Of a stretch of 64,000 bases of DNA, positions 13,083 through 56,815 are shown piece by piece. Position 1 is the stretch's first letter. The number at the start of each line of letters is the position of its first letter. Source of the DNA: Octopus vulgaris (lineage: Eukaryota); the NCBI GenBank assembly GCA_951406725.2, contig OX597816.1:153264001-153328000 (forward strand), given 5' to 3'. Under the pieces are notes generated by a model, which was given only the letters and a program-made list of their open reading frames with translations, was not told the DNA's origin and searched no databases. A program made the translations under genes and the position numbers.

Positions 13083-13950
13083 CAGTTGTTTTATTTTTAT
13101 AGCGTGCTTTCACTTCACTACCGAGCGCAGCTCTGTGTGCCTTGGGTATGTGCTGTGATTTGTTGTGGTGCTCTGATGGTTACTGTATTGAAAGTGTTTT
13201 GCGTAGGATGTGGGCAGTGCCCAGTAGTGCAATTTTCTGTATGTTATATGTATTTGTAAGTCCTGGTGTTTTTGTTATGTATTTGTCTGAATATGTTTTA
13301 TCATGCCTAATGCACCTACTATGATAGGAATTGTTTCTGTTTTTAGATTCCACATTCTGGTTACCTCTATTTCCAGGTCTTTGTATTTTGAAAGTTTCTC
13401 CATTTCTCTTAGAGACACGTTGTCATCTGCTGGTATTGATACATCAATTAGAAAGCATTTGTTTTCTTCATGATCTCTGACAACTATATCTGGTCTGTTG
13501 GACTTAATTTCTCTATCTGTGTGTATTGGCATATCCCAGAGTATGGTTGCTTTCTCGTTTTCTGTGACCTTTTCTGGTGTGTGCCTATACCATCTTTTTT
13601 CTGTTGTTATTCCATAATGTTGGCATGTCTGTGAATATATTCCTTCTTAGCCAGGACTGGGCAGCTAGAGATAATATGATTTATTGTTTCTTGTCCATCT
13701 CCATATATTCTGCAGTTACTTGTTATGTTTCTTTTCATTATATGTTTTTGGTAATTTCTGGTGGGGAGGCTTTGGTCTTATGCTGCAATTAAAAATCCCT
13801 CCGTCACTGCTTTGAGTCCTGAGTTTCTCAACCATTGCTGGGATTTTTCTCTGTCTATTTCTTTTGCATTTAGTTTAATCCAGTATTTGCCATGAAGGGG
13901 TTTTCTTGCCATCGTTTTATCATGGTCCATTGCTGTTCTAGTTTTATTTT
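13083..13950 (-). mobile_element. 3' fragment of R4/Dong-like LINE
   Basis: ORF 13275-13532 contains RPDIVV...LIDVSIP...EKLSKYKDL (PD-D/ExK RLE endonuclease). Upstream peptide KPLHGKYW...SQQWLR. (ATT)n on both sides. Confidence 0.88.
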
Positions 13951-13954
13951 GGAT

Positions 13955-14049
<95 letters not shown>

Positions 14050-16275
14050 ATAACAATAATAATATTATTATTATTGCTTACTTTTAATTTGCAAGTTCGT
14101 TACAATCATTTGCCGAGACACACCCAGCGTCCTAAGGCGATTGAAAGATAGATGTTACTGTATGACTGAAAGCTTGAGGAGGGCAAGTGACAGGGGTAGT
14201 AGCGAAATATCGTCATGTAATACAACACAGGCGTTTAAATTGGTAAGGTTTTTCTAAGGATGCGGACAGTAGTTGTCAGCACAATCTTTTGGCTTTCTCT
14301 GAAACATGGTTCTCCTTGGACATTATCTAGATGTTTCTGGCACCCAGTTATTATCATACCTAAGACATCCACAATAACAGGAACAGTTCTCGCTTTAAGA
14401 TACCACATCATTTGTATTTCAATTTCCAGGTCTACAAGTATTTTCTTCTCTGTCTCAAATTACTATGCCAGGTCGATTAGTCTGAATCGTTCTGTCGGTT
14501 TTGACTGGAAAATCCCAGAAGATAGTGACATTTTTACTTTCAACTGCTGGCTCAGGATGATGTTCATACTAGTAAGCAAGAGCGCTGATTTTATAGTGTT
14601 TAAATATTTTCCAATGTAAATACTGTCCTACCCTATCGTGGGTGATTTTTGTATTCGCTTGGTGTCAGCACAAGACATCCCGACAAGTTAGTCTATTGTT
14701 TCCTCAAATGTATCGCAGAATCTACATTTAGGGTCAGAATCGTGTTGAAGAACGTTAACCTGGTAGTTTTTGGTAAGCAAGCTTTGATCGTGTGTCACCA
14801 ATGTGAAACCTTCAGTCCCTGTTTTCAGTCATGAACTTCTCAGCCAATGATGGGTTATTGCTTGCTCTACATCAGCATTTCGGTTTCGAAGTATATACTC
14901 TCCATACAGAGGCTTCTGGATCCACCGATCTCCAATTTGTTTCTGCCCATTCATTTTTGCAGTTTGTTTAATCCGTTTTGCTTCTTTGGTGACAGTGATT
15001 TCAAAGTCTTCATCTAATTCAGGGTTAATGCTGAGTTCCCTTGCAAATTTGCAATAGCAAGTGATCTTTTGCTGCTTTCGTGTTTGCACACAAACCGCAG
15101 CATCTCGTCTTATGTACTAGTTAAGTACTTGTCCATTGCTATCGTGGAAGTCCTATAGCACAGTTCTACCTGCATCATTCCTCTTCCCCCATTACTTCTA
15201 CGTAGGTACAGATGATCAACGTCTGCTTTTCGGTGGTGCATGTTCTTAGATGTTACTATGTTACTAGTTTTTTGCCTTCCTGTCCAGGCGTTGGCGTTCT
15301 ATAAGATTACAGTTAATGATGTTAATACTGTATTGGACAACTGGAAGTGCCAGGGTGTTAATGTCTTCGACGCGATTTTTGGAGTTGAGTTCAGTTTTTA
15401 GTATGAACCTTATTCTCCTGTAATACTTTCTTATTTCTTCCTTCATAGCAGCATGTTGTATACCATCTCCTTCGTTTATCCCCAGGTGTTTATAGCTTTC
15501 TTGCAGGTCAAGCTCGTTGATGGTAATGTCGGTTTCTAATTTAATGGAAGTTGTTTGCTTGAGCTGGCCTCATCCAAAAGTTGCTGTAGCACACTTATCA
15601 AGGCCAAAATCCATCCCAATGTAATTGCTGAACTCTTCAACAGTTGTTAAAAGCCCTACCACGTCATTTCTAGCAAACAGCTTTAGATCGGGTCTGTTGT
15701 CCATATAACAAACGGTTTATTAACTTGGTGTTAGTTCGTTTGAGAGTGGGATCAGTGCCATACAAAAGAGTAACGAGGAGAAGTTACCTTGAAAGATGCT
15801 CGTTTGATGTTGATGTTGTTAGATTGGCTCATCTCATTACTATCGTTTAGAAGAAGACGTGTATTCCACTTGGCCATGCTACCTTGTAAGAATTTGGAGA
15901 TGAAAGAAGAGATCTTATATCAAGGGCCTTGAGTAACCAATTATGTGGGACACTATCCAAAGCTTTCATGTAGTCTATCCATGCCATACTCAGGTTTTTC
16001 TTGTTGCTCCGGCAATTCTTTACAATCATTTTATTTATGAGTAATTGGTCTTTGTATCCATGACAGTTCCTTTTATAACCTTTTTGAGCTTGTGGAAGGA
16101 TAGAGATCTGTTCAAGGAAAGTGTACATTCTTTCAGTTAGTATGGATGTGAGGATCTTATAGGTGGTGTTGAGACATGTTATTGGTCCAGTTCCATATTT
16201 AAGAGATGAGAAATTATGTACATTATTTATATTATTTACAGTTGACGGATATTTGTCCTCATCTTGTTTGTTGTT

Positions 16276-16321
16276 AACACAACGTTTCGGCTGATATACC
16301 ATCAAGCCTTTATCAGGTGTC
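16276..16321 (-). ncRNA. Minimal type I hammerhead ribozyme motif in Penelope pLTR (G8 mutated; decayed sister copy at 17194-17222 +)
   Basis: gacac CUGAUaA a ggcu-loop-agcc GAAA cGUU guguu: stem I gacac/guguu, palindromic stem III AACGUU. Confidence 0.6.
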
Positions 16322-17040
16322 TTGGGGACATTTCGAATTTATTATTATTATTATTAATGATGATGATGATGATGATGAAAGGGATTGCTCAGTGACTAAA
16401 ACATCGGGCAATGAATATAAGTAGCGATCGTGATACCCACCACGAAGAAATGATCAAGCTCAGTAACAATCTATTAAGCAACAACTACCCCAAAAGCATA
16501 CTCTCCACTCCAACTATGAAGAAAAAAGGGGATGAAACCGATAAACTGTCCACAGTCTGTCTACCCTATGTGAAAGGCCTCTCCGAAAAGATACAAAATA
16601 TATGCGGTCCATATGACATCAGGACAGTATTCAAAAGTAATACAACACTTCGCAAATATCTCCTTCGAGAAAAACCACTAATAGAAGAAAATACGCTCCA
16701 TCTCATGCAGCTGTGGTAAGTTATACAAAGGCGAAACATGCCGCCTCCTCAAAATAAGGGTAGAGGAACATCGCATATCTGTGACACAGGGAGATATTAA
16801 TAAATCGGGTATAGCTGATCATGTATAGAAAAATGGAGACCTCCTCCCCCTGTGGGATGAAGTTAAAATAATACACATAGACTACTACTGGAAAATACGA
16901 AAACTAAATGAAGCAGCACATATGCTAGGACACAACAACCTCCTAAGCAGACCGAGTGCAGATATGAACAGCATATGGGAACCGGTATTAAGGAAGGATA
17001 GGAGAATATTAGATTTATAATTCACTCCATAATTGTCCAC

Positions 17041-17112
17041 GGGCATATGGTGTAGTGGTTAAGAGCGCGGTATACTAACCCCAAGATTCTGAGTTCGATT
17101 CCAGGCAGTGAC
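17041..17112 (+). promoter_or_regulatory. tRNA-like Pol III internal promoter inside the Penelope 3' region
   Basis: A box TGGTGTAGTGG and B box GAGTTCGATTCC with tRNA-like spacing. Not a complete cloverleaf. Confidence 0.65.
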
Positions 17113-18070
17113 CTGAATAATAATAATAATAATGATAACAACAACATCGAAAAATGACTTAGGAATGAGAAGCCAGGTTCGCAATTTCCCCAAGACACCC
17201 GATGAAGCCGAAATATTGTGTTAACAAACAAGATGAGGACAAATATCCGTCAGTTGTAAATAATGTAAACAATGTATGTTATTGGTCGATAGTTCTTTGA
17301 AATGTTCGTGTCCTCGGTTTTTTTTGTAGAAGGTATGTTGTTCCTTCAGTCAGCCAGGCAGTATTTACTCTGGATTCTGGACGATATGAGTGAGGGATGA
17401 AGCAAAATTTTGGTGTACTTCTCTCAAACAATGCAGCCAGAAATTAGGGATCCAGTCCAGTCCAGGGGTTTTCCATTTGTGAGACTTTCTAAGAAAACAT
17501 CTTAGCTCTTCTACTTCTATTGCCTCCCATTTCTGCTCTTCAACTTCATCCAGTCTCACTTTCTCACGTTCTATCCAGTGAGCTTCAGCATTATATTCTT
17601 TTTTGTTGCTTCTTCAAGAACTCTTCCATTTCTTCAGTCATAGGTAGCTCCTTTACTCCTATCTTTCTTTTGCCAATTCCTCCATAAAATGTTTTTGCAT
17701 CCATCTTGAATACCTTGTTGTGTCGATAAAATTTGATTCTTTTGTCATAACTTCTGAGCCTTTGGGCTTTCAGTTGTATTCGTTGTGTCACTAGTAGTTC
17801 CTTGGTTGCAGGGAGGATTATAAAATCTTTCATTTTATATTTTTGCTTGATTTTTCTAGCTTGTTTCGACTTAACATTTACTCCTCTAGCAAGTTCACCG
17901 AGGACTGATACACCCGCCCACAACAATTCGATCTCTTTTTGTATTGCTACTTTCCACTTAGGAGGTCTATTGGACGTGGTTGATCCTTTTCTCTGCCATC
18001 CTGATATTTAGTTGAGTAGTTGCAACTTTAGCAAGTGGAATAGATGAGGTTATCTAAGGTTGTTAGAGTA

Positions 18071-18350
18071 TCTGTGTATATATAAGGCAGGATGTGTGTG
18101 TGTACGTGAATGTAATTTATGCACATCCAGAAATTAGCACGCATGTCACTCAAATATTAGGAGGACATTCGTCACGATCATAGCCGTATTTTCGTCAAAT
18201 TATTTTCTCCCGAGGCACCCGCGAATAGCGGTAATTAATTTTGAGCCATAACTTCTAACAATTTTCACGGCGGAGAAATCCACTGTAGTGAAGCCATTAT
18301 TGTTTACATAAATGAGTTAAGTCCCCTTCTAGCGACGGTGTAAATAGAGG

Positions 18351-18414
<64 letters not shown>

Positions 18415-18577
18415 AGATTTTTAAAATTTCGTCTTTTTAAAGACTGAATGACAGGCAAAAAGAGACAGACAGGTGTTGTTATGTATGTATGTGTGAATGG
18501 CTTCAGTCACACACACACACACACACACGAACATGTATGCGTACAAAACACATGCATGCAATGTGTGTGTTGACCGC

Positions 18578-18608
<31 letters not shown>

Positions 18609-19762
18609 CACAATATAAACGATATTCTCCGTTTCTCCACAACTAATTTCCAAATTAGCTGAATCCGTTGCTTTACTCATAGCTATATATAGCTGGTCGT
18701 GCGTGAACATGGGAAATAGGAGAGGTTACCAGAGCAAAAGATCTACGTGTTGACTGTAGACACGCTCCTTCGCAAATGATCAGCTATTATTTTGTAAACA
18801 ATGTTTCAAAACTGTTCATGTTTTCGAAAGTAGAGATCTCACTCTCACATCTCTGCGGCAGAAGGTAGGTTTCTCTACTCCTGTTACAAAACTTATGTTT
18901 GGGTGACAAATTTGCTTCAATTGATGGTATTACTCGGGTAGGAGGTGGTGGTGGGACAGGGGCGTGCAAAAACATGTATGCAATAGGTGTATGTACGTAT
19001 ATGTTTGTGTGTGTTGCCCATATATATATATACTTAGTTGTGATCTGAACATAACCGCTTCTCGCACACAGGATCGAGGGCCCTTTTGGGCGTTCTATTA
19101 TCCTTGCTGGAAGGGTTCCCAACCCGTGGGCAAAGTAGGGTTACATGATGTGGGTGGTGTTTTCAAAAGGGTTGGCATATGCAACCTGATCACCTCTGTC
19201 GATCAAACTCCCAACCCATGCGCTCCCGTCGTGACACTGATTCTGCAGAACTGGTTTGGGTATGAAAACCAACTTTAAAGTATAAATATAGATGTTTTTG
19301 AATCAGCAATGTTCGGTTAAATCCTATTTGGGGTGAAAAATCAATAAACAGATTCCTTATGGAGTTTTCCATTTAATCAGAATAGAAAAAAAATGATAAA
19401 TCGATTCCTTATAGGACTTCCCACTAAAATTGGCTACACCCCATTTTCAACCATAACGTCTACCAATTTTGATATATTTTGTTCAAACTTGATGCCAGCA
19501 TTACTTAGGACTCATGGGATCTTTGAATGCTTTAAGTTCTCCAAAATCAAAAAAAAAAAAAAATCGATGAGTGGAAAAAATCGATAAACCTTATGGGATT
19601 TCCCAATCAAATTTTCTGCAAAATTTTAGCCAAAAGTTTACCAATTTCAACGGATTGCACTCAAATTTGACGTCGACGCTACTTAGTTTGCTTTGAAATA
19701 AAGAGCTTGATTAGCTTAATAATCCTAACTTAATCCCGAGCAAAGCCGGGCTATACTGCTAG
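18071..19762 (+). mobile_element. Non-autonomous Helitron
   Basis: Starts TC (tctgtgtatatataagg) after A and ends CTAG before T. Subterminal GC hairpin cccg-agcaaagc-cggg at 19735-19750. No TSD. LINE sequence resumes on both sides. Confidence 0.8.
18612..18712 (-). pseudogene. Helitron Pif1-type helicase C-terminal remnant
   Basis: FTHDQLYIAMSKATDSANLEI...TENIVY resembles the conserved FSHGQLYVALSR...T.NIVY end of Helitron RepHel. Confidence 0.65.
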
Positions 19763-21139
19763 TTTCCCTTATTTCTTAAGATTTTTCTAAGAGTAACATT
19801 ATATATCATGATTATGTTGTTATTTTTAAAGCTGTTTGAGAGCTTTGATTGCGATTCTCTATTGATCATGAATTCTCTCATAATATCTTCTTTTGCTTCT
19901 ATGATCTTTTAATTATTCACCTCAAATTCTGTGTCATATCTATTCTGGAGTTTTTGAGGTTGGTATACTTTCTCCTCTTTTTCTACATATTTATTCTTCG
20001 CTATTTTTTCTTCAGATTCCTCGCTGAGATGTACTGCTTGTACACTGGGTTCAGTGCATCTTTTACCTATTTCATCTGCATTGTTGCTGTTTTCATTTGG
20101 TCTATCATGATATATTTGTATCCTAATTTGGCTAATTTCAGCATCAGTTAACCTTTTATTTTTAATGATGTCTCTACGTACATTACTTAATTTACTTGCG
20201 TCTATATATCTGTGTACTTCGTTGCCCACTAAGTTTCTCCATGAAGTGTATGTTTGTACAATGAGGTTTTTGTTTGGGTTTAGCTAGGCTGCATAGAAAA
20301 CTTTCAGCACATCTCTATAATCCTCTCTAGTCCATTATATGCTTTAGATGGTGCTTTTGGAGGTTTCATTACAGGTCTAGGGTTAGGGTTATCCTGGTTC
20401 TGGTTACCAAGTAGTTCGTGTTTTTTTGAGAATTTATTCCAGCAGCAGCAACAGCAGGCTTTTCAACCCCAGTCTGGTTCGCCACTGGTTAACGTGGTCC
20501 TTGTCCTGGACGATGACCGATCCGGCATGAGTTTTGGCTCTTCGTTAAAGCATTGACGGTGACAATAGGAAACGGGTCTGTTGCTCGTAGGCTGATAGAT
20601 CGAAAATTGCTTGTTTTTTTTTTGGTAGCTATTTTTCCTGGCATAACTGTTTCATGGTGTTTTAAACTGAATGACTAACTTACTCCCTTTTATATTTGTT
20701 TGTGGGAAGTCGCATTATTTTTGTTTGGTTCGGCGTCGAACGTGACACGTGTTTTTCTTTTATTTTTATGTATGAGTATGTGTGTGTCGTGTACGAATTA
20801 TTTATGTTGCTTGTAAATACTAGCATGTGCACATGGATGCATGGGCAGTTGTGTGTGTATATAATTATTCAATTTACGTACTTACTGTGTAACTGTTGCT
20901 GGTTTCGACGTCTTGCGTATGTCACTTTTAGATATCGTGCATTTAAAAAAACTACACTGTATATAACAAAAATCTTTCCGATTTTTTAGTTCCTTTGCTT
21001 TAACAGAACTTTTCCCACAGTTATATTGCGAAGTTTTCCTTCCATTGCAGCGATGTTACTGGATTAAGTTTGTTTTGTAGAGAGAGCTTCTTAGTGTATA
21101 TCCACGTTGTTATTTAGCCCGGAGCCATTATTATTATTA

Positions 21140-22916
21140 TAGACGTCGCACAGTATACAATATCGTGAGGTTGTTGATTGAAGATATTGTATCTACTGGG
21201 GTATTGTACTGCCTGTTAAGTCATGACAAGGACCTCAGACAGACAGTACTTTACGCAATATGCGTGCAGTTCCAAGTAATGCCGACTTTTGCTATACATC
21301 TAGATTGTAGGGTATCTCTAAGGTTTTCAGATGTTTTTCTTTTCAGATTGGGTGGTATTGAACCCAATGCTCCGATGATATTTATGTACGACTCTCGTAG
21401 CTGCCACATCTTAGCGATCTCATTTATACAGTTTTCCATATTTATTAACATTTTCTCTTTCTTTCATGATATGTTGATCTCCTGGCACTGCTACGTCAAT
21501 TATTAGGCACTCTTTTATTTCCCAACCATATTGTTTTAGGTTCAATCCCATGAGAAACAAGCTTATACCACAGATCATAGTTACTCCATGCTATGTAAAA
21601 AAAAACAAAAAAAACACCCAGTACAAATGTATATCCAGCCTTCGGTGTTCTAACACTTTGTCTGTCTGAAAATCTAAATCCCAGAGGATTATTGCCTCCC
21701 CCTTTTCATCCATTACCTTTTCCAATGTATGTCGGTACCAAGCACCGTAACTTCATATCCATACTTCAGGCATAGTAGCCAGTGGTGGTTTTGGGCTACT
21801 TTGTCGTGATTACGCTTGTACTCTTTCTGTGCAAGACTTTCACAAGCACTAACAATGTGAGTCACACTTTCAACCCTCTTCCCACATATACTGCAGGGGT
21901 CCGATGTACTTGTAGGATATATATTCTTTCTCACTGAGTTGATATTCAATGCCTGGTCCTGGACCGCGATGATTTGGCTTTCAGTATTCCTTTTTAGGCC
22001 ACCCTTCTGGAGCCACCTCCATTATGCTCCCTGGTCTTTTAATTTGTTTATTTCACGGTGGAACTAACCATGTAATTCCATACGGAGTAGGGTTTCTTCT
22101 CTTTTGTTGGCTGTTCTTGTTCAGAATTTATGAGCACTCTCAAGTCCATTTTTGTTAACTCCTTCCGCACTAACAGCATACTGTAGCAAGTCTTCTTTGC
22201 TGTTTACCAAATATTCTGTCATACTTCTTCTTTCACTGTTGATGCACTCCCATAGGCTAATCAGTCCACGTCCACCTTTAGCACTCTTCATGTAGAGCTT
22301 GTGTACATTTGCCTTAGGGTGGAGAGCACCATGCATTGTCATTGTCTTTCGGGTAGTGCGATCGAGTTGGTCAATCTCCGCTTGTGTCCATCTCAGAATG
22401 GGTGCATTATAGTGGACTACAGCAACAGCCCATATGTTGATGACAGTCACAAGATTCCTTGAGTTGAGCTTTGATTTCAAGAGAAGTTTGAAGCGCTTGA
22501 AATATGCAGTGATGACTTTATATTTCATTTCTCTGTGCAAATATTGTCCAGCTCTAGGATCCCAAGGTACTTGTACCCATCATCATCCGAGTCTTCCATT
22601 CTCTCTCCGTATGGCAATTCTATGCCCCTACAATCTACTCTTTTCCCCCGCTTCAAAGTAAGCACCACACACTTCGAGATACCGAATTCCATCCCTATGT
22701 ACTTGCTGCACATTTTCAGTCTCAGCCAGCCTCTTCATTTCAGGCTTTGTTTTCGCGAACAGTTTTAAATCACCCATGAAGAGAAGGTTGTTGAGACGAG
22801 GTCCGTTCTTTCTCAGCTCATAGTGCAGGATGGTTTTACGTAGGATTACAGAAAGTGGGATCAAGGCTATAACAAATATCAGAGATGAACAAGAGTCTCC
22901 TTGAAAGATACCTCCT
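21140..22916 (-). mobile_element. 5'-truncated R4/Dong-like LINE (RT, CCHC finger, RLE endonuclease; frameshifted)
   Basis: GIFQGDS, LLFMGDLKLF, GMEFGISKC, YKYLGILE, LKSKLNSRN, GGRGL, CSICGKRVESVTHIVSAC, IIGALGSIP. Confidence 0.9.
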
Positions 22917-22922
22917 ATTATT

Positions 22923-22972
<50 letters not shown>

Positions 22973-23016
22973 TATCATCATCATCATCATCATCATCATC
23001 ATTATCATAATAATAA

Positions 23017-23215
23017 AGCTGCGAACTGGCAGAATCATTAGCACGCCTGGCAAAATGCTTAGTAGCATTTCGTCCGCCTTTATGTTCTGAGTTCAAATTT
23101 TGCTGAGACAGACTTTGCCATCCATCCTTCGGGGTCGCTAAATTTAGTACCACTGAAGTGCTGGATCGACAACCCCTTCCCCCAAATATCAGACCCTATG
23201 CCTTTTGTAGAAAGG
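23017..23215 (+). mobile_element. SINE family A copy
   Basis: gcgaactggcagaatcattagcacgcc...gagttcaaattt...gccatccatccttcggggtcgctaaatttagtacc. Confidence 0.8.
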
Positions 23216-23326
23216 CAGAAATGATTATACCTGCATTTGAATATGTACCAATGAATCACTGAGATCGATCCAATAGACTAGTCCTCTCCCACCAAATTTC
23301 AGGCCTTGTGCCTATATTAGATAGGA

Positions 23327-23383
<57 letters not shown>

Positions 23384-23385
<2 letters not shown>

Positions 23386-23990
23386 TAGTTTTATTTTAAT
23401 AGCGTGCTTTCACTTCACTACCGAACGCAGCTCTGTGTGCCTTGGGTATGTGCTGTGATTTGTTGTGATGCTCTGATGGTTATCGTATGGAAAGTGTTCT
23501 GCGTAGGATGTATGCAGTGCCTAGTAGTGCAATTTTCTGTATGTTATATGTGTTTGTAAGTCCTGGTGTTTTTGCTATGTATTTGTCTGAATATTTTTTT
23601 ATCATGCCTAATGCACCTATTATGATAGGAATTGTTTCTGTTTTTAGATTCCACATTCTGGTTACCTCTATTTCCAGGTCTTTGTATTTTGAAAGTTTCT
23701 CCATTTCTCTTAGAGACACGTTGTCATCCCCTGGTATTGATACATCAATTAGAAAACATTATTTTTCTTCATGATCTCTGACAACTATATCTGGTCTGTT
23801 GGCCTTAATTTTTCTATCTGTGTGTATTGGCATATCCCAGAGTATGGTTGCTTTCTCGTTTTCTGTGACCTTTTCTGGTGTGTGCCTATACTATCGTTTT
23901 TCTGTTGTTATTCCATAATGCTGGCATAGTTGCCAGTGTATATAGGTCCCAACTCTGTCGTATCTGTGAATATATTCCTTCTTAGTCAGT
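23384..23990 (-). mobile_element. 3' fragment of R4/Dong-like LINE, same subfamily as 13083-13950
   Basis: ORF 23480-23719 EKLSKYKDLEIEVTRMWNLKTETIPIIIGALG; 3' UTR nearly identical to 13083-13190; (ATT)n tail. Confidence 0.88.
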
Positions 23991-24261
23991 GATTGAAAAA
24001 GTTTTATAAAAGGAGAAAGGGGCTCTCTACCCCCCTTTTTGACCAGGTTCCCGTTGACTTTTATGGGTTTTTCCACCAGGAACCTTTCGAAGCGCCTCCC
24101 CCTATTGGGAGTTTTTCATTGTTAAATATTTTCGTTGTTACACTGTTTTTTACGCGGATTTTTACAAACGGACAAAACCCTTTGTAACCTTTCGTCCTGT
24201 TTTGTCCTCTTATGCTTTCTAATTATGTGTGTCAGCCCTTGTGGCCAATAAAAAGGATTAT

Positions 24262-39018: not shown

Positions 39019-40250
39019 CCAGGGTTGTATCAAAAGAATGTGAAAGTGGGTATAACATTTTTATTAACTGACATAGGTCGCTCAATCTGCGCATGTCGGT
39101 GAAATAGATTTCTATCGTAATTCTTCTTCCTGTTCTTATCCGTTGCAGGCAACTATTGCGTTCCAAACGGAAGAATCATTGAGTTTTTGATGAAAAAGGG
39201 GGTCCAGGCCATCTGACATCAACAGATACAAGTACTTTGCATAGGGTACGACACCATTAAGTAGATCAATATGTTAGATGGAAGAAGGAGTTTAAAGAAA
39301 GGAAAACCAACATTGAAAATAAATCACACAGTAGGAGAGCTATCAATTGCGACCACATCTGAATCACCAGCGAGTGGAAGAATAAATTTGCGAGTACAGA
39401 AAAGTTGTAATGCTTTACAGAAAATCGTGGAAGACTTTCGGTATTGGAAAATATGTGCAAAATGGATATCTCAGAGGTTGACACCCAGTTTGAAAGAATG
39501 AATGGAGGAAGTCTACTATGATCAGCTGGAAATGTTTGAAGTCAATGAAGAAACGGTTTTTTTTCCGATTTGATGACAGGACGAACCGTGGCAGTATATT
39601 TATGATCTAAAAGTCCCAGTCCATAAAATTGCTTCAGACCTCTTCTTGAAAGCCTAAGAAGTTCAAGAACCTGTGATTGGCACAAAAAGTAACGGTAATT
39701 GTTTTGTGGATTAAAAACTCGTATTTTTCTTCGATTTTCTGAAACATGGGTGTATCTTGATCAGCGATCGATTCATGGAAACACTAAAACATCTCAGAGA
39801 AGCTATAAGGAGAAAGAGAACGACAAGAATCAGAAAACGATCTACATTCACCATGAAACGCAGGACCATGCATATTTTTGCCAACAAATCAAGCACTCAG
39901 TATATTGGGCTAGTCAGTGATTTCCTATCTACTTTATTCTCTGGATCTGTCGCCCGCGACTTCCAGTCTTTTGGTCATCTGAAGGACAGTTTTCGGAGAA
40001 AACAATTTCATGATATAGATGAGGTGAAAGTATTTGTAGGTGGGTACTACAGCGAACAGATGAATTTTTTAAAATAAAAGTTTTAGAGTTGCATTTTTAG
40101 ACGGCACAAATGTATCATTTGTAAGGGAAGCTATGTTGAATAGTATCTTTGTATAAAGAAAATGCTATCCTACTAACATCTACAGTTTGAACAACATACG
40201 TCAGTAAATAAAAAGTTATACCCACTTTTGTACACTTTTAATATAACTCA
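39019..40250 (+). mobile_element. Decayed mariner (Tc1/mariner) DNA transposon
   Basis: Imperfect TIRs (aaagtgggtataac...tttatt..ctgac / gtcagtaaataaaaagttatacccacttt). Transposase remnants ICAKWISQRLT (WVPHEL-like) and DFQSFGHLKDSF...FHDIDEVK (region after YSPDL). About 1.2 kb. Confidence 0.85.
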
Positions 40251-40335: not shown

Positions 40336-40739
40336 CTGTGTGTAGTATACTGTTCGGTGAGTAAGTAAAGCCTCTTAGTTGGCTAGTCACGTATGGAGTT
40401 TGAAGCCCAATGCCACATCATATGCAGTCAAGTGGAAAACAGTCAAAAAAGGTTCACACCATATGTCAACAGATAAAAAAATAAAATTGTAAGCTACGCG
40501 TAGCTGAAAGATCACAGATCCTTTTCGGATCTCAGGACTCCACTGCACTGCTGAATTCTAGAATTTCCGTTGCTGAAGTGGAAAATGCCATCCTCTCCGA
40601 ATTGAGCTGCTGAACCATAGAGTCAGCTTTATGAATTAACAGCCGAAGGAAACATAACTCCAATTTCTCCCCCTCTTTTCTGTTTTCTTTTTCGTTTTCC
40701 GGGGTTGCCGGGTATGCGAATAAGAGTACAAGAGTTAAC

Positions 40740-40975
40740 GAATGGATTAGATAAGATCCGGGTTACATGTTTTATAGCGAGCGGAACCTCGGAAGTGGCG
40801 AATATCCAAGTGAGATGTATACCACAGGCTACTCTTCAGGGCAAAGATATCTTGATTAAATCAAAGTTTACATTATCGCAAGGAGGTGCGGTATACACCT
40901 TGCTTGGACATTCACCACTTCTGAGGTTCCGCTCGCTATAAAACATATGCAACTCGGATCTTATCTAATCCATTC
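40740..40975. mobile_element. Fold-back element, second member of the 29167 family (inverted; HHR decayed GAAA>AAAA)
   Basis: Arms 40740-40810 / 40903-40975 (gaatggattagataagatccg / cggatcttatctaatccattc). Minus strand has CUGAAGA guagc...gcuau aaaac auGUA. Confidence 0.8.
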
Positions 40976-40976
40976 C

Positions 40977-41085
<109 letters not shown>

Positions 41086-41300
41086 TGTATGTATGTATAT
41101 GTATACATACATATATTTGTGTGTGTGTGTAAAATTAATATAAACAGCAGTTTGCAATGTTTCGTCAAAAATGAGAATTATAATTGTCACTAAATGTGAC
41201 TTGGGTGTTAGAAACGCCTACATTGCTGGAAATAAGAGCTAAAATGTAAGCATATACACAAACAGAGACCTTAATCGTCCGAAAAATCCCGATCGAGAAT

Positions 41301-41351
41301 TCTTAATATTGACGTCAGTTTCGGCAATTTTCATTGCCTCATCAGTTAAGA
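41301..41351 (-). ncRNA. Type I hammerhead ribozyme motif
   Basis: ucuuaa CUGAUGA ggcaau-GAAA-auugcc GAAA cugacgucaAUA uuaaga: 6-bp stem I, 6-bp stem II with GNRA loop, canonical core. One C-A mismatch in stem III. Confidence 0.82.
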
Positions 41352-41626
41352 CTGGCTGGAAAGTTCGACTTTTTCCAGATTGACTTGCTTGTGCACTGAC
41401 TTCAGTATTAGAGCATTTTAGCTTTCATTTCTAGCAATGTAGGTGCTTCCAACACCCTAGTCACATTTAGTGACAACTGTACTTCTGTTTGGTGAAACAT
41501 TGCAAACTGCTGTTTATATTTTATGCATACACATTAACGAATCGCTAAATCATCCATTAATTTGGATGACGAAACACATATACTAATATAGAAGCAAGTA
41601 CGAAAAAAGTCGAACTTTCGAGTCAG

Positions 41627-41676
41627 TCTGACTGATGAGGCAACGGAAATTGCCGAAACTGACGTCAGTATTCAGA
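41627..41676 (+). ncRNA. Type I hammerhead ribozyme motif (inverted paralog of 41301-41351)
   Basis: ucuga CUGAUGA ggcaa-cggaaa-uugcc GAAA cugacgucaGUA uucaga. Stem III is the perfect palindrome ACUGACGUCAGU. Confidence 0.82.
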
Positions 41677-41815
41677 ATTCTCGATCGGCATTTATCGGAC
41701 GATTAAGGACGCTGTTATTGTATATACTTACATTTATGTGCGTTGACAACAGCATTAAAGCATCTTAGGTCTTATTTCTAGCAATGTAGGAGCCAGATTT
41801 AGTGACAATTATATG

Positions 41816-41862
<47 letters not shown>

Positions 41863-41884
41863 ATGTGTGTGTATCATATGTATG

Positions 41885-41923
<39 letters not shown>

Positions 41924-55749: not shown

Positions 55750-56815
55750 CGTTTCTTTATGAGGACGTACTCCTGTATTTGTCTGAGGGCTGGTTCCTTT
55801 GGGTGCTTGGATAAAATGCAGATGTCAAGTTGTCCTAGATTGCCTCCATGTTGGTAGCATATGGAGGACTGTTTTTGTCGTCATATTGTCTCAAATATTC
55901 GTTTAGTCTTTCCGCAATGCTCCTAGATATCTTCCCTGTGAATGTCATGTTAATGTCTTTACAAGCATCTTCTATGCATCTTATACTGTAGACTACATTT
56001 CTAGTTCTACAGTTAATGCCAGAGCTAATCCTACTTACCATGCGGTTATCATTGGTGCATAGGGTATTCTCAAGAGAGTACGTCCTACATAGTTGTGGTC
56101 TGATGGAGTTCCCTGGTTTTTCAACAATCTTAATATTCAGTTTGGTCTCCTTCAGAGCTTTCTTAAATCTACGGCCTAGTTCTCCATAGGATGTGGCCTT
56201 TACAAGTAGCACACCTAGATATTTGTCGGTTTTATACCACGTGTTCACCCTGTTTGCTTTGTCACAAGCTCTTTGTTTCCTATTCCAGTCATTGCTTCTA
56301 TATCTAGGGCAAGTACTACTGGTTTCATTACATATGATGTTATATAACTTCTTTCTAGCACCCCCGTATACTCGAACCCTATCTTCCTGATCACATCCAG
56401 AGAATTGCATGCGGTGCATGAAGTTCTGTACGTTTCTTCGTTTCATAGGGTTCGTATAGTGGGGACGCGTTGTTCATTATCCTAACTAAGTATTCTATCA
56501 GTATGTTAATTTTCATGTTGTGTGACAAAGCTGAGTTCTTGTGAACAACATATTTCGAAGCTATAGGCTTTATGTAACAGGAGTGAAGGAGCTGCACTCA
56601 GTTGTTTACAGTCTCTAACCAAAGTTCAGTGTCAAGGACGGGGAATCTATTGTTGGGGTGCCTAGTGGTGTAATCTATAGTTACCTTTATACTTTAGTGG
56701 ATGGAGTTAGCTACTTGCTGGATATTCTCCATTATGTTCTTCTCAGTTTCTACATTACCGTTACTAGAGTTGGTCTTAACTAGGATATTAATGTCGTCTA
56801 TACACCGGCTGTATC
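55750..56815 (-). mobile_element. Penelope-like element remnant (RT C-terminus plus GIY-YIG endonuclease)
   Basis: RCIDDI (YxDD remnant) near 56790; YIKPIASKYVVHKNSAL; CRTRNVVYSIRC...C...FTGKISRSIAERLNEY. Confidence 0.75.

Follow-up and report, generated by a model that had tools for sequence, protein, structure and literature searches.

Introduction

Non-LTR retrozymes are described as tandem repeats of 150-450 bp with a GC content below 45%; in mussels the unit is 350-390 bp (PMC7229834). According to published accounts, the repeats are transcribed through, the RNA cleaves itself and is circularised by host ligases, and the elements are thought to be moved by the enzymes of Penelope-like elements (PLEs) (PMC7229834; 10.64898/2026.07.22.740005; PMC7761336). 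The mover is still argued from co-occurrence and from homology with PLE pseudo-LTRs (pLTRs) (10.64898/2026.07.22.740005; PMC7761336). PLE insertions are reported as partial tandems; often an inverted copy, truncated at its own 5' end, adjoins the 5' end of the tandem, and one end bears a tail (PMC8557442). Microsatellite or AT-rich DNA is given as their favoured target (PMC8557442; PMC11167929). In Schistosoma, hammerhead pairs on opposite strands and 100-700 bp apart have already been reported (PMC4209133).

Animal tandem-repeat hammerheads, palindromic helix III, dimer cleavage and opposite-strand pairs are thus all published already, so the locus described here is not a discovery of kind. 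Judged by titles and abstract openings, the literature yielded no octopus or cephalopod retrozyme family; one may be catalogued in Repbase, Dfam or the supplement of PMC7229834.

We analysed a window of 64,000 nt from Octopus vulgaris, in which an earlier note, made from the letters alone, had described two inverted hammerhead ribozymes. We consider it probable that this locus carries roughly two decayed copies of a type I hammerhead repeat that is non-coding, 347 bases long and arranged head to tail, likely a non-LTR retrozyme, placed by PLE enzymes in a single insertion into a microsatellite, with the inversion as a likely by-product. A retrozyme insertion with a PLE-type inversion and unequal ends would be mechanistic support for PLE mobilisation, and many copies make the pattern countable. 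If true, PLE enzymes would have left a direct footprint on a cephalopod retrozyme in this inverted, tailed insertion, and we found no such case in print.

Organization of the locus

Self-alignment shows that the whole insertion spans 41122..41813 and consists of an inverted 5'-truncated copy followed by a partial tandem of about 1.2 units of the 347-nt repeat. The location given in the earlier note (41138..41812) was right, but the extent is slightly wider. The period is 347 (41390 to 41737), the GC content is 36.9%, and the unit is non-coding, with longest stop-free stretches of 58 and 61 codons.

Copy 1 lies on the minus strand at 41122..41390 by self-alignment and pairwise alignments, and lacks an internal stretch of about 24 nt that is present in both plus copies. 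Its type I hammerhead (41301..41351, minus), found by descriptor scan and folds, has the core at 41345-41339, a stem I of 6 bp and a stem II of 6 bp; cleavage is predicted after AUA (41307). The head-to-head inversion junction at 41389..41390 is flush, with about 1 base in common, as seen by alignment and in bridging contigs.

The plus-strand partial tandem begins with the 3' part of a unit (41390..41533), placed by self-alignment. The remainder of the unit 5' of the ribozyme (41534..41600, plus) carries a 7-bp hairpin (41550-41569); its fold has a z score of -2.5, equalled by 4 of 200 shuffles, and among the pieces listed the stretch is traversed by paralog contigs. In minimum-energy folds a long interrupted extension of stem I surrounds the second hammerhead (41601..41697, plus). 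This type I motif, copy 2 (41627..41676, plus), was found by self-alignment, descriptor scan and folds; its core is at 41632-41638, stem II has 5 bp, the palindrome occupies 41658-41669, and cleavage is predicted after GUA (41670). The 5' strand of its stem I has 5 nt, one base having been lost. The 3' part of copy 2 (41677..41813, plus) follows by self-alignment, with the second period beginning at 41737. A 15-nt deletion after 41790 is private to copy 2; among the rows listed, paralog loose ends lie behind 41790 in 25, 41 and 36 contigs.

Both flanks are microsatellite, with AC, TA and TATG on the left (40979..41116) and TA and TG on the right (41810..41921), where a target-site duplication is illegible. 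The window has a GC content of 29-41% per 2-kb bin and is rich in microsatellites and decayed retroelements. Three interleaved inverted arms had been claimed, and self-alignment confirmed them: 41242-41374 pairs with 41604-41735 at 89%, 41122-41246 with 41414-41533 at 83%, and 41179-41242 with 41765-41813 at 70%. In the self-alignment they resolve into one inverted copy (41390 to 41122) and the plus-strand partial tandem at 41390-41813.

The 347-nt repeat family

Paralogs were surveyed by aligning contigs of 4 of 24 sequencing runs at a likeness of at least 80%. The rows listed cover 40 of 170 letters, 12 of 21 indels, 15 of 386 joints, 24 of 1210 loose ends and 32 of 8384 pieces. In the DNA runs of organisms A, B and D, 2093, 2575 and 2603 contigs aligned to the repeat, most of them less than 95% alike; these contig counts and the depth gradient along the unit are not copy number. 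A further 156 contigs came from run X24, which is RNA by guess only and is not counted as expression.

The family is arranged head to tail, because paralog contigs keep the unit order and run into the next unit. Among the pieces listed, overlapping ones follow that order (41488-41790, 41427-41677 and 41572-41790). The joints listed include some that lead out of a unit's 3' end and into its successor: 41131 to 41523 in 3, 5 and 4 contigs, 41131 to 41631 in 5, 6 and 5, and 41350 back to 41131 in 0, 4 and 3. None of the pieces listed spans two hammerhead motifs; the joints imply consecutive units. Two consecutive hammerhead units on one strand, the mark of an "active" element in 10.64898/2026.07.22.740005, do not occur at this locus. 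Folded as a circle, the unit has only modest stability (z -2.1), matched by 1 of 100 shuffles on the plus strand and by 5 of 100 on the minus.

No third copy was found in the window with nhmmer, and a 43-nt match at 853-895 was rejected as a further copy since the core is absent. An exact pattern found no relatives in the metagenome contigs or in the viral contigs scanned. With a looser pattern, 4 loci in metagenomes and 3 in genomes came up; all 7 were rejected, as they show no hammerhead stems, no tandem repeat and no likeness beyond the motif.

The inversion and the number of insertion events

Among the pieces listed, each DNA run (A, B and D) has one contig that crosses the inversion junction, at a depth of 49-60. 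The junction contigs of A and B have no differences from the window (0 in 220 and 0 in 212 letters), and that of D has 11 differences and 4 gaps in 224. Run X1 may share the window's own source and is not independent evidence for the junction. The depth beside the junction is 86-236, against thousands elsewhere. Since the junction is bridged in each DNA run, the inversion is real, specific to this locus and older than the A/B/D split.

We asked whether one or two insertion events lie behind the arms, using the self-alignment and the paralog contigs, and a single event is likely on the sequence. Its support comes from the flush junction and from letters in which both arms depart from many paralogs: both have T at 41610, where 62-76% of the paralog depth has C, and both have a base at 41623 that is missing in 33-54% of paralog depth. 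The outer ends are offset by about 45-55 nt in unit position; the left end lies in an AC-rich patch, beyond the right end. Divergence between the arms is 18/146, 17/124 and 8/60 (12-14%), and between the two plus copies 17/83 (20%), and this unevenness counts somewhat against one event. It would fit two separate insertions of the same family, the second beside the first in opposite orientation, and PLEs are reported to insert into or beside earlier copies (PMC6765202). We regard two insertions as unlikely, given that the 5'-to-5' junction is flush, that the arms share minority letters and that organisms A, B and D already have the junction.

Hammerhead motifs and their lesions

A type I descriptor with a strict core was run on the whole window, with 100 block-wise dinucleotide shuffles as controls. 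It gave two strong matches in the window and none in any of the 100 shuffles. They are the two motifs on opposite strands that the earlier note had placed here, and its stem I strings (ucUUaa/uuAAga in copy 1, ucUGa/uuCAga in copy 2) were read correctly. The core CUGANGA / GAA / A15.1-U16.1 / H17 is present at 13 of 13 positions in both copies and identical between them, as had been claimed, and two differences in loop II agree with the remark that stem II differs in or beside its loop. The hammerhead position numbers used here (e.g. 15.2, 16.2 and H17) are those that we take to apply to these copies.

The Rfam Hammerhead_3 model (RF00008) agrees with both copies in core and stem II and scores them below its gathering score of 48.5, at 36.4 bits (E 4e-6) and 33.9 bits (E 2e-5); no match in the whole window reached a gathering score. 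In the model's alignment the upstream CAGUC serves as the substrate strand and stem I is absent, which makes type III unlikely as the working form; in that reading, which we rejected, stem I would be without a loop.

These scores below gathering, and a hammerhead fold that is not the predicted minimum of the monomer, would suit a chance likeness within a fold-back element. Such an origin is scarcely credible when none of 100 shuffles gives a match and all core bases and three helices occur in type I order. We conclude from the sequence that both motifs are type I hammerheads by descent.

"Near-canonical", the wording of the earlier note, overstates their condition, for both copies are damaged next to the cut. 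In copy 1 stem I is perfect over 6 bp, and an A at 16.2 (41309) gives a C15.2·A16.2 mismatch and an AUA triplet, disrupting both the C15.2-G16.2 pair and the palindrome; the earlier note passes over this lesion. In copy 2 the palindrome is perfect and the triplet is GUA, and the 5' side of stem I is one base shorter. The 12-nt palindromic stem III that had been claimed is thus present in copy 2 (41658-41669) but broken in copy 1. The canonical core of copy 2 requires a bulged U, in a fold 7.9 kcal/mol above the minimum; an alternative slid helix, with an extra U past the cut site, lies 4.0 kcal/mol above it. The hammerhead fold of copy 1 is 6.7 kcal/mol above its own minimum. A stem I internal loop and a 6-nt loop II are present, and a loop 1-loop 2 contact is a candidate only.

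Lesions of this kind would be expected to slow hammerhead cleavage. Neither copy has three intact helices with stem I directly after H17, and each helix is intact in one or the other copy, which weakens the case for activity here and leaves descent from a hammerhead unaffected. Both hammerheads at the locus are predicted to be inactive.

The upstream CAGUC (41621-41631, plus; 41357-41346, minus) could substitute for the downstream strand of helix III. In copy 1 it is followed by a palindromic UUAA, and a second, dimer-only cut site 5' of the core is conceivable on this model. A second hammerhead in the 3' part of the unit (41434-41506) was considered and rejected: there is no CUGANGA, and the paralog loose ends listed there are without GAAA. 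The same segment (plus) has a four-way junction fold, a frame like that of a type III hammerhead without the catalytic core. The stretch just upstream of it has the peak paralog depth and may be a recognition element.

Covariation and selection

The two copies differ by 9 substitutions and 1 gap over 98 columns. A compensatory change in stem I had been proposed, with a U-A pair replaced by G-C; on these two sequences it is too weak to count as covariation. MAFFT aligns the gap with a U instead of an A, which leaves 0 of 21 pairs changed on both sides; with the gap placement of the earlier note there is 1 such pair, with P 0.04-0.09 under neutral decay. The G-C pair of copy 2 needs a U bulged or unpaired beside the cleavage site, and then restores a 5-bp helix. 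In 200,000 simulations of neutral decay a compensated pair arose in 3.8% (9.4% with a one-base slide) and an untouched core in 26%. Paired columns hold 6 of the 9 substitutions, against 5.6 expected, and most of these break pairs.

In the four runs, A makes up 84, 90, 91 and 90% of the paralog depth at 41673; among the loose ends listed, the consensus before 41631 ends as copy 1 does in the three DNA runs. Copy 2 is therefore the derived form, since the paralogs mostly match copy 1 at both places. The remaining 9-16% of depth at 41673 may include a minor G-C subfamily. A CG insertion in 3, 4 and 5 paralog contigs keeps the palindrome and was rejected as a sign of selection, because CG slippage preserves the palindrome automatically.

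Selection might keep the locus for an active pair of ribozymes or for a long hairpin of double-stranded RNA that serves the host. In favour are the identical core (13/13), a possible compensation at one pair, the hairpin predicted at about -299 kcal/mol and the inversion junction kept in organisms A, B and D. The stems, however, change at the neutral rate and mostly by breaking pairs, an untouched core has a P of 0.26 under neutral decay, the ortholog of organism D has 11 letter differences and 4 gaps in 224, and each ribozyme has a lesion beside its cut. Selection here is very improbable.

Dimer cleavage and a possible lock

A palindromic stem III had been said to suit dimeric cleavage, and the folds of copy 2 bear this out as far as prediction goes: the double hammerhead, in the slid register, is the predicted minimum of the dimer (-53.3 against 2 x -22.8, i.e. 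7.7 kcal/mol lower). In copy 1 the double hammerhead lies 6.4 kcal/mol above the free dimer.

The predicted fold of a single copy 2 RNA has the core base-paired to the palindrome. The palindrome echoes the first letters of the core, and might lock the core of the monomer; in tandem units the palindromes would pair with each other and free both cores, so that cleavage would occur only in the dimer. This would be a different route to dimer-only cleavage than the known short helix III. We folded the 256 palindromes beginning with AC in two contexts, a post hoc comparison on decayed copies. In a ranking of all 256 by how well they close the monomer, the natural one comes 7th and 15th; with copy 2 as the context, 73% of the set leave the monomer hammerhead at the minimum or no more than 0.5 kcal/mol from it. 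Several points count against the lock. The gap is only about 4 kcal/mol, from a calculation without magnesium or tertiary contacts, and the dimer gains less over two monomers with the natural palindrome (-7.7) than with the median one (-15.7). Local duplication could give the likeness of palindrome and core without selection. Most hammerheads of invertebrate retrozymes are reported to cut well as monomers (PMC7761336). We rate the lock as doubtful on these models; the family offers a simple bench test of such an anti-core lock keeping monomer circles uncut.

Retrozyme or remnant of a Penelope-like element

Compared with the non-LTR retrozymes described from coral, mussel and axolotl (PMC7229834), the locus is alike in its non-coding head-to-tail unit of about 350 nt, which falls within 150-450 bp (period 347, paralog joints), in its GC content below 45%, in its multi-copy family and in having one type I hammerhead of canonical build per unit; the mussel units of 350-390 bp are a molluscan precedent. 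It differs in that helix III is longer, with 4 bp, a 4-nt loop and a 12-nt palindrome, where 1-2 bp are given as usual (PMC4209133), and in being a decayed copy with a 5' inversion, known from DNA alone. The earlier note had not assigned the motifs to a tandem family of this sort.

The form of the insertion is that of PLEs (PMC8557442; PMC11167929): a partial tandem with an inverted, 5'-truncated copy joined to its 5' end, two unequal ends, and AT-rich or microsatellite DNA as the target. Unlike an autonomous PLE the locus has no RT or GIY-YIG ORF, and its end offset of about 45-55 nt is longer than the published tail of 30-40 nt. Minimal hammerheads of PLE pseudo-LTRs are described as type I motifs with a palindromic helix III and a dimer model, as here (PMC4209133). 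In contrast to those motifs, the hammerheads of this locus have no extra base after A9 (between 9 and 10.1), a real helix III where theirs is near-absent, a stem I of 6 bp with a long extension and a stem II of 5-6 bp.

For comparison, the window contains a remnant at 16219-17276 which we take, from its motifs, to belong to the Penelope-like clade. It has the same inverted-arm geometry as the cassette, with arms of 74 nt at 88% and an ORF fragment between them (16396-16719, plus) without a Pfam match. The left arm carries a minimal hammerhead at 16316 (minus) with one core change, and the right arm a hammerhead copy missing most of stem II. No sequence link from the repeat to an autonomous PLE was found in the window.

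The sequence might then be the pseudo-LTR remnant of an autonomous PLE whose ORF was lost through 5' truncation. Beyond the shared insertion architecture (PMC8557442), retrozymes and pLTRs are reported to be homologous (10.64898/2026.07.22.740005), and among the loose ends listed one before 41397 (median 105 nt, 4 reads) leads into unrecognised sequence. But the unit closes on itself in the window and in the paralogs, leaving no room for an ORF, and the motif has the canonical build, with a 6-bp stem I, a 4-bp helix III and nothing inserted after A9, in contrast to both the minimal PLE consensus (PMC4209133) and the minimal motif at 16316. A pLTR remnant is quite improbable.

A retrozyme remains the preferred reading. 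The unit, its period, the tandem order of the family, the single-locus inversion and the lesions were read directly; it counts against the retrozyme reading that the RNA, the circle and the cleavage are all taken by analogy from published retrozymes, and that among the short contigs listed there is no intact source array. In the life cycle that we propose, tandem source copies would be transcribed through, as in published retrozymes, and the RNA would be cut at one site in every unit; in this family the cut would probably be made by a double hammerhead, in which two neighbouring palindromes form a 12-bp helix III. By the same analogy a host ligase would close the cut RNAs into circles of about 350 nt, and these would be reverse-transcribed over more than one unit. 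PLE enzymes would insert the copy into a microsatellite in one event, the inverted copy being a likely by-product.

After insertion both arms would drift neutrally, and read-through RNA of the locus would fold into a long sense-antisense duplex that hides the ribozyme. The duplex is predicted at about -296 to -299 kcal/mol on either strand; in it 48 of 50 and 46 of 51 ribozyme bases are predicted to pair with the other arm, with a stem II probability of 0.0. The motifs face apart, so no single transcript has two sense ribozymes; each holds one sense motif and one antisense, as the earlier note had it. Because the duplex would take up most ribozyme bases, the locus is likely inert as a ribozyme. 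The inverted layout that had been read as a ribozyme cassette does exist, but as a likely by-product of insertion at one locus, where it is predicted to silence cleavage.

Other elements in the window

A fold-back element of 244 bp at 40736-40979 lies 140 bp left of the cassette. It is MITE-like, with arms of about 100 bp, and has no sequence kinship with the cassette. At 55838-56473 (minus) there is a decayed ORF with a GIY-YIG-like end, probably another PLE. In one weak match, 44 of its residues agree at 75% with the tail of a UniRef "cadherin domain-containing protein" of Octopus bimaculoides; this entry is possibly a gene model that absorbed a transposon fragment. Several broken ORF pieces of non-LTR retrotransposons lie at 13275-24000, with one Pfam RVT_1 match (15850-16338, E 1e-6). 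A mariner-like transposase fragment at 39715-40077 (plus) has a weak match to Pfam Transposase_1 (E 0.0045).
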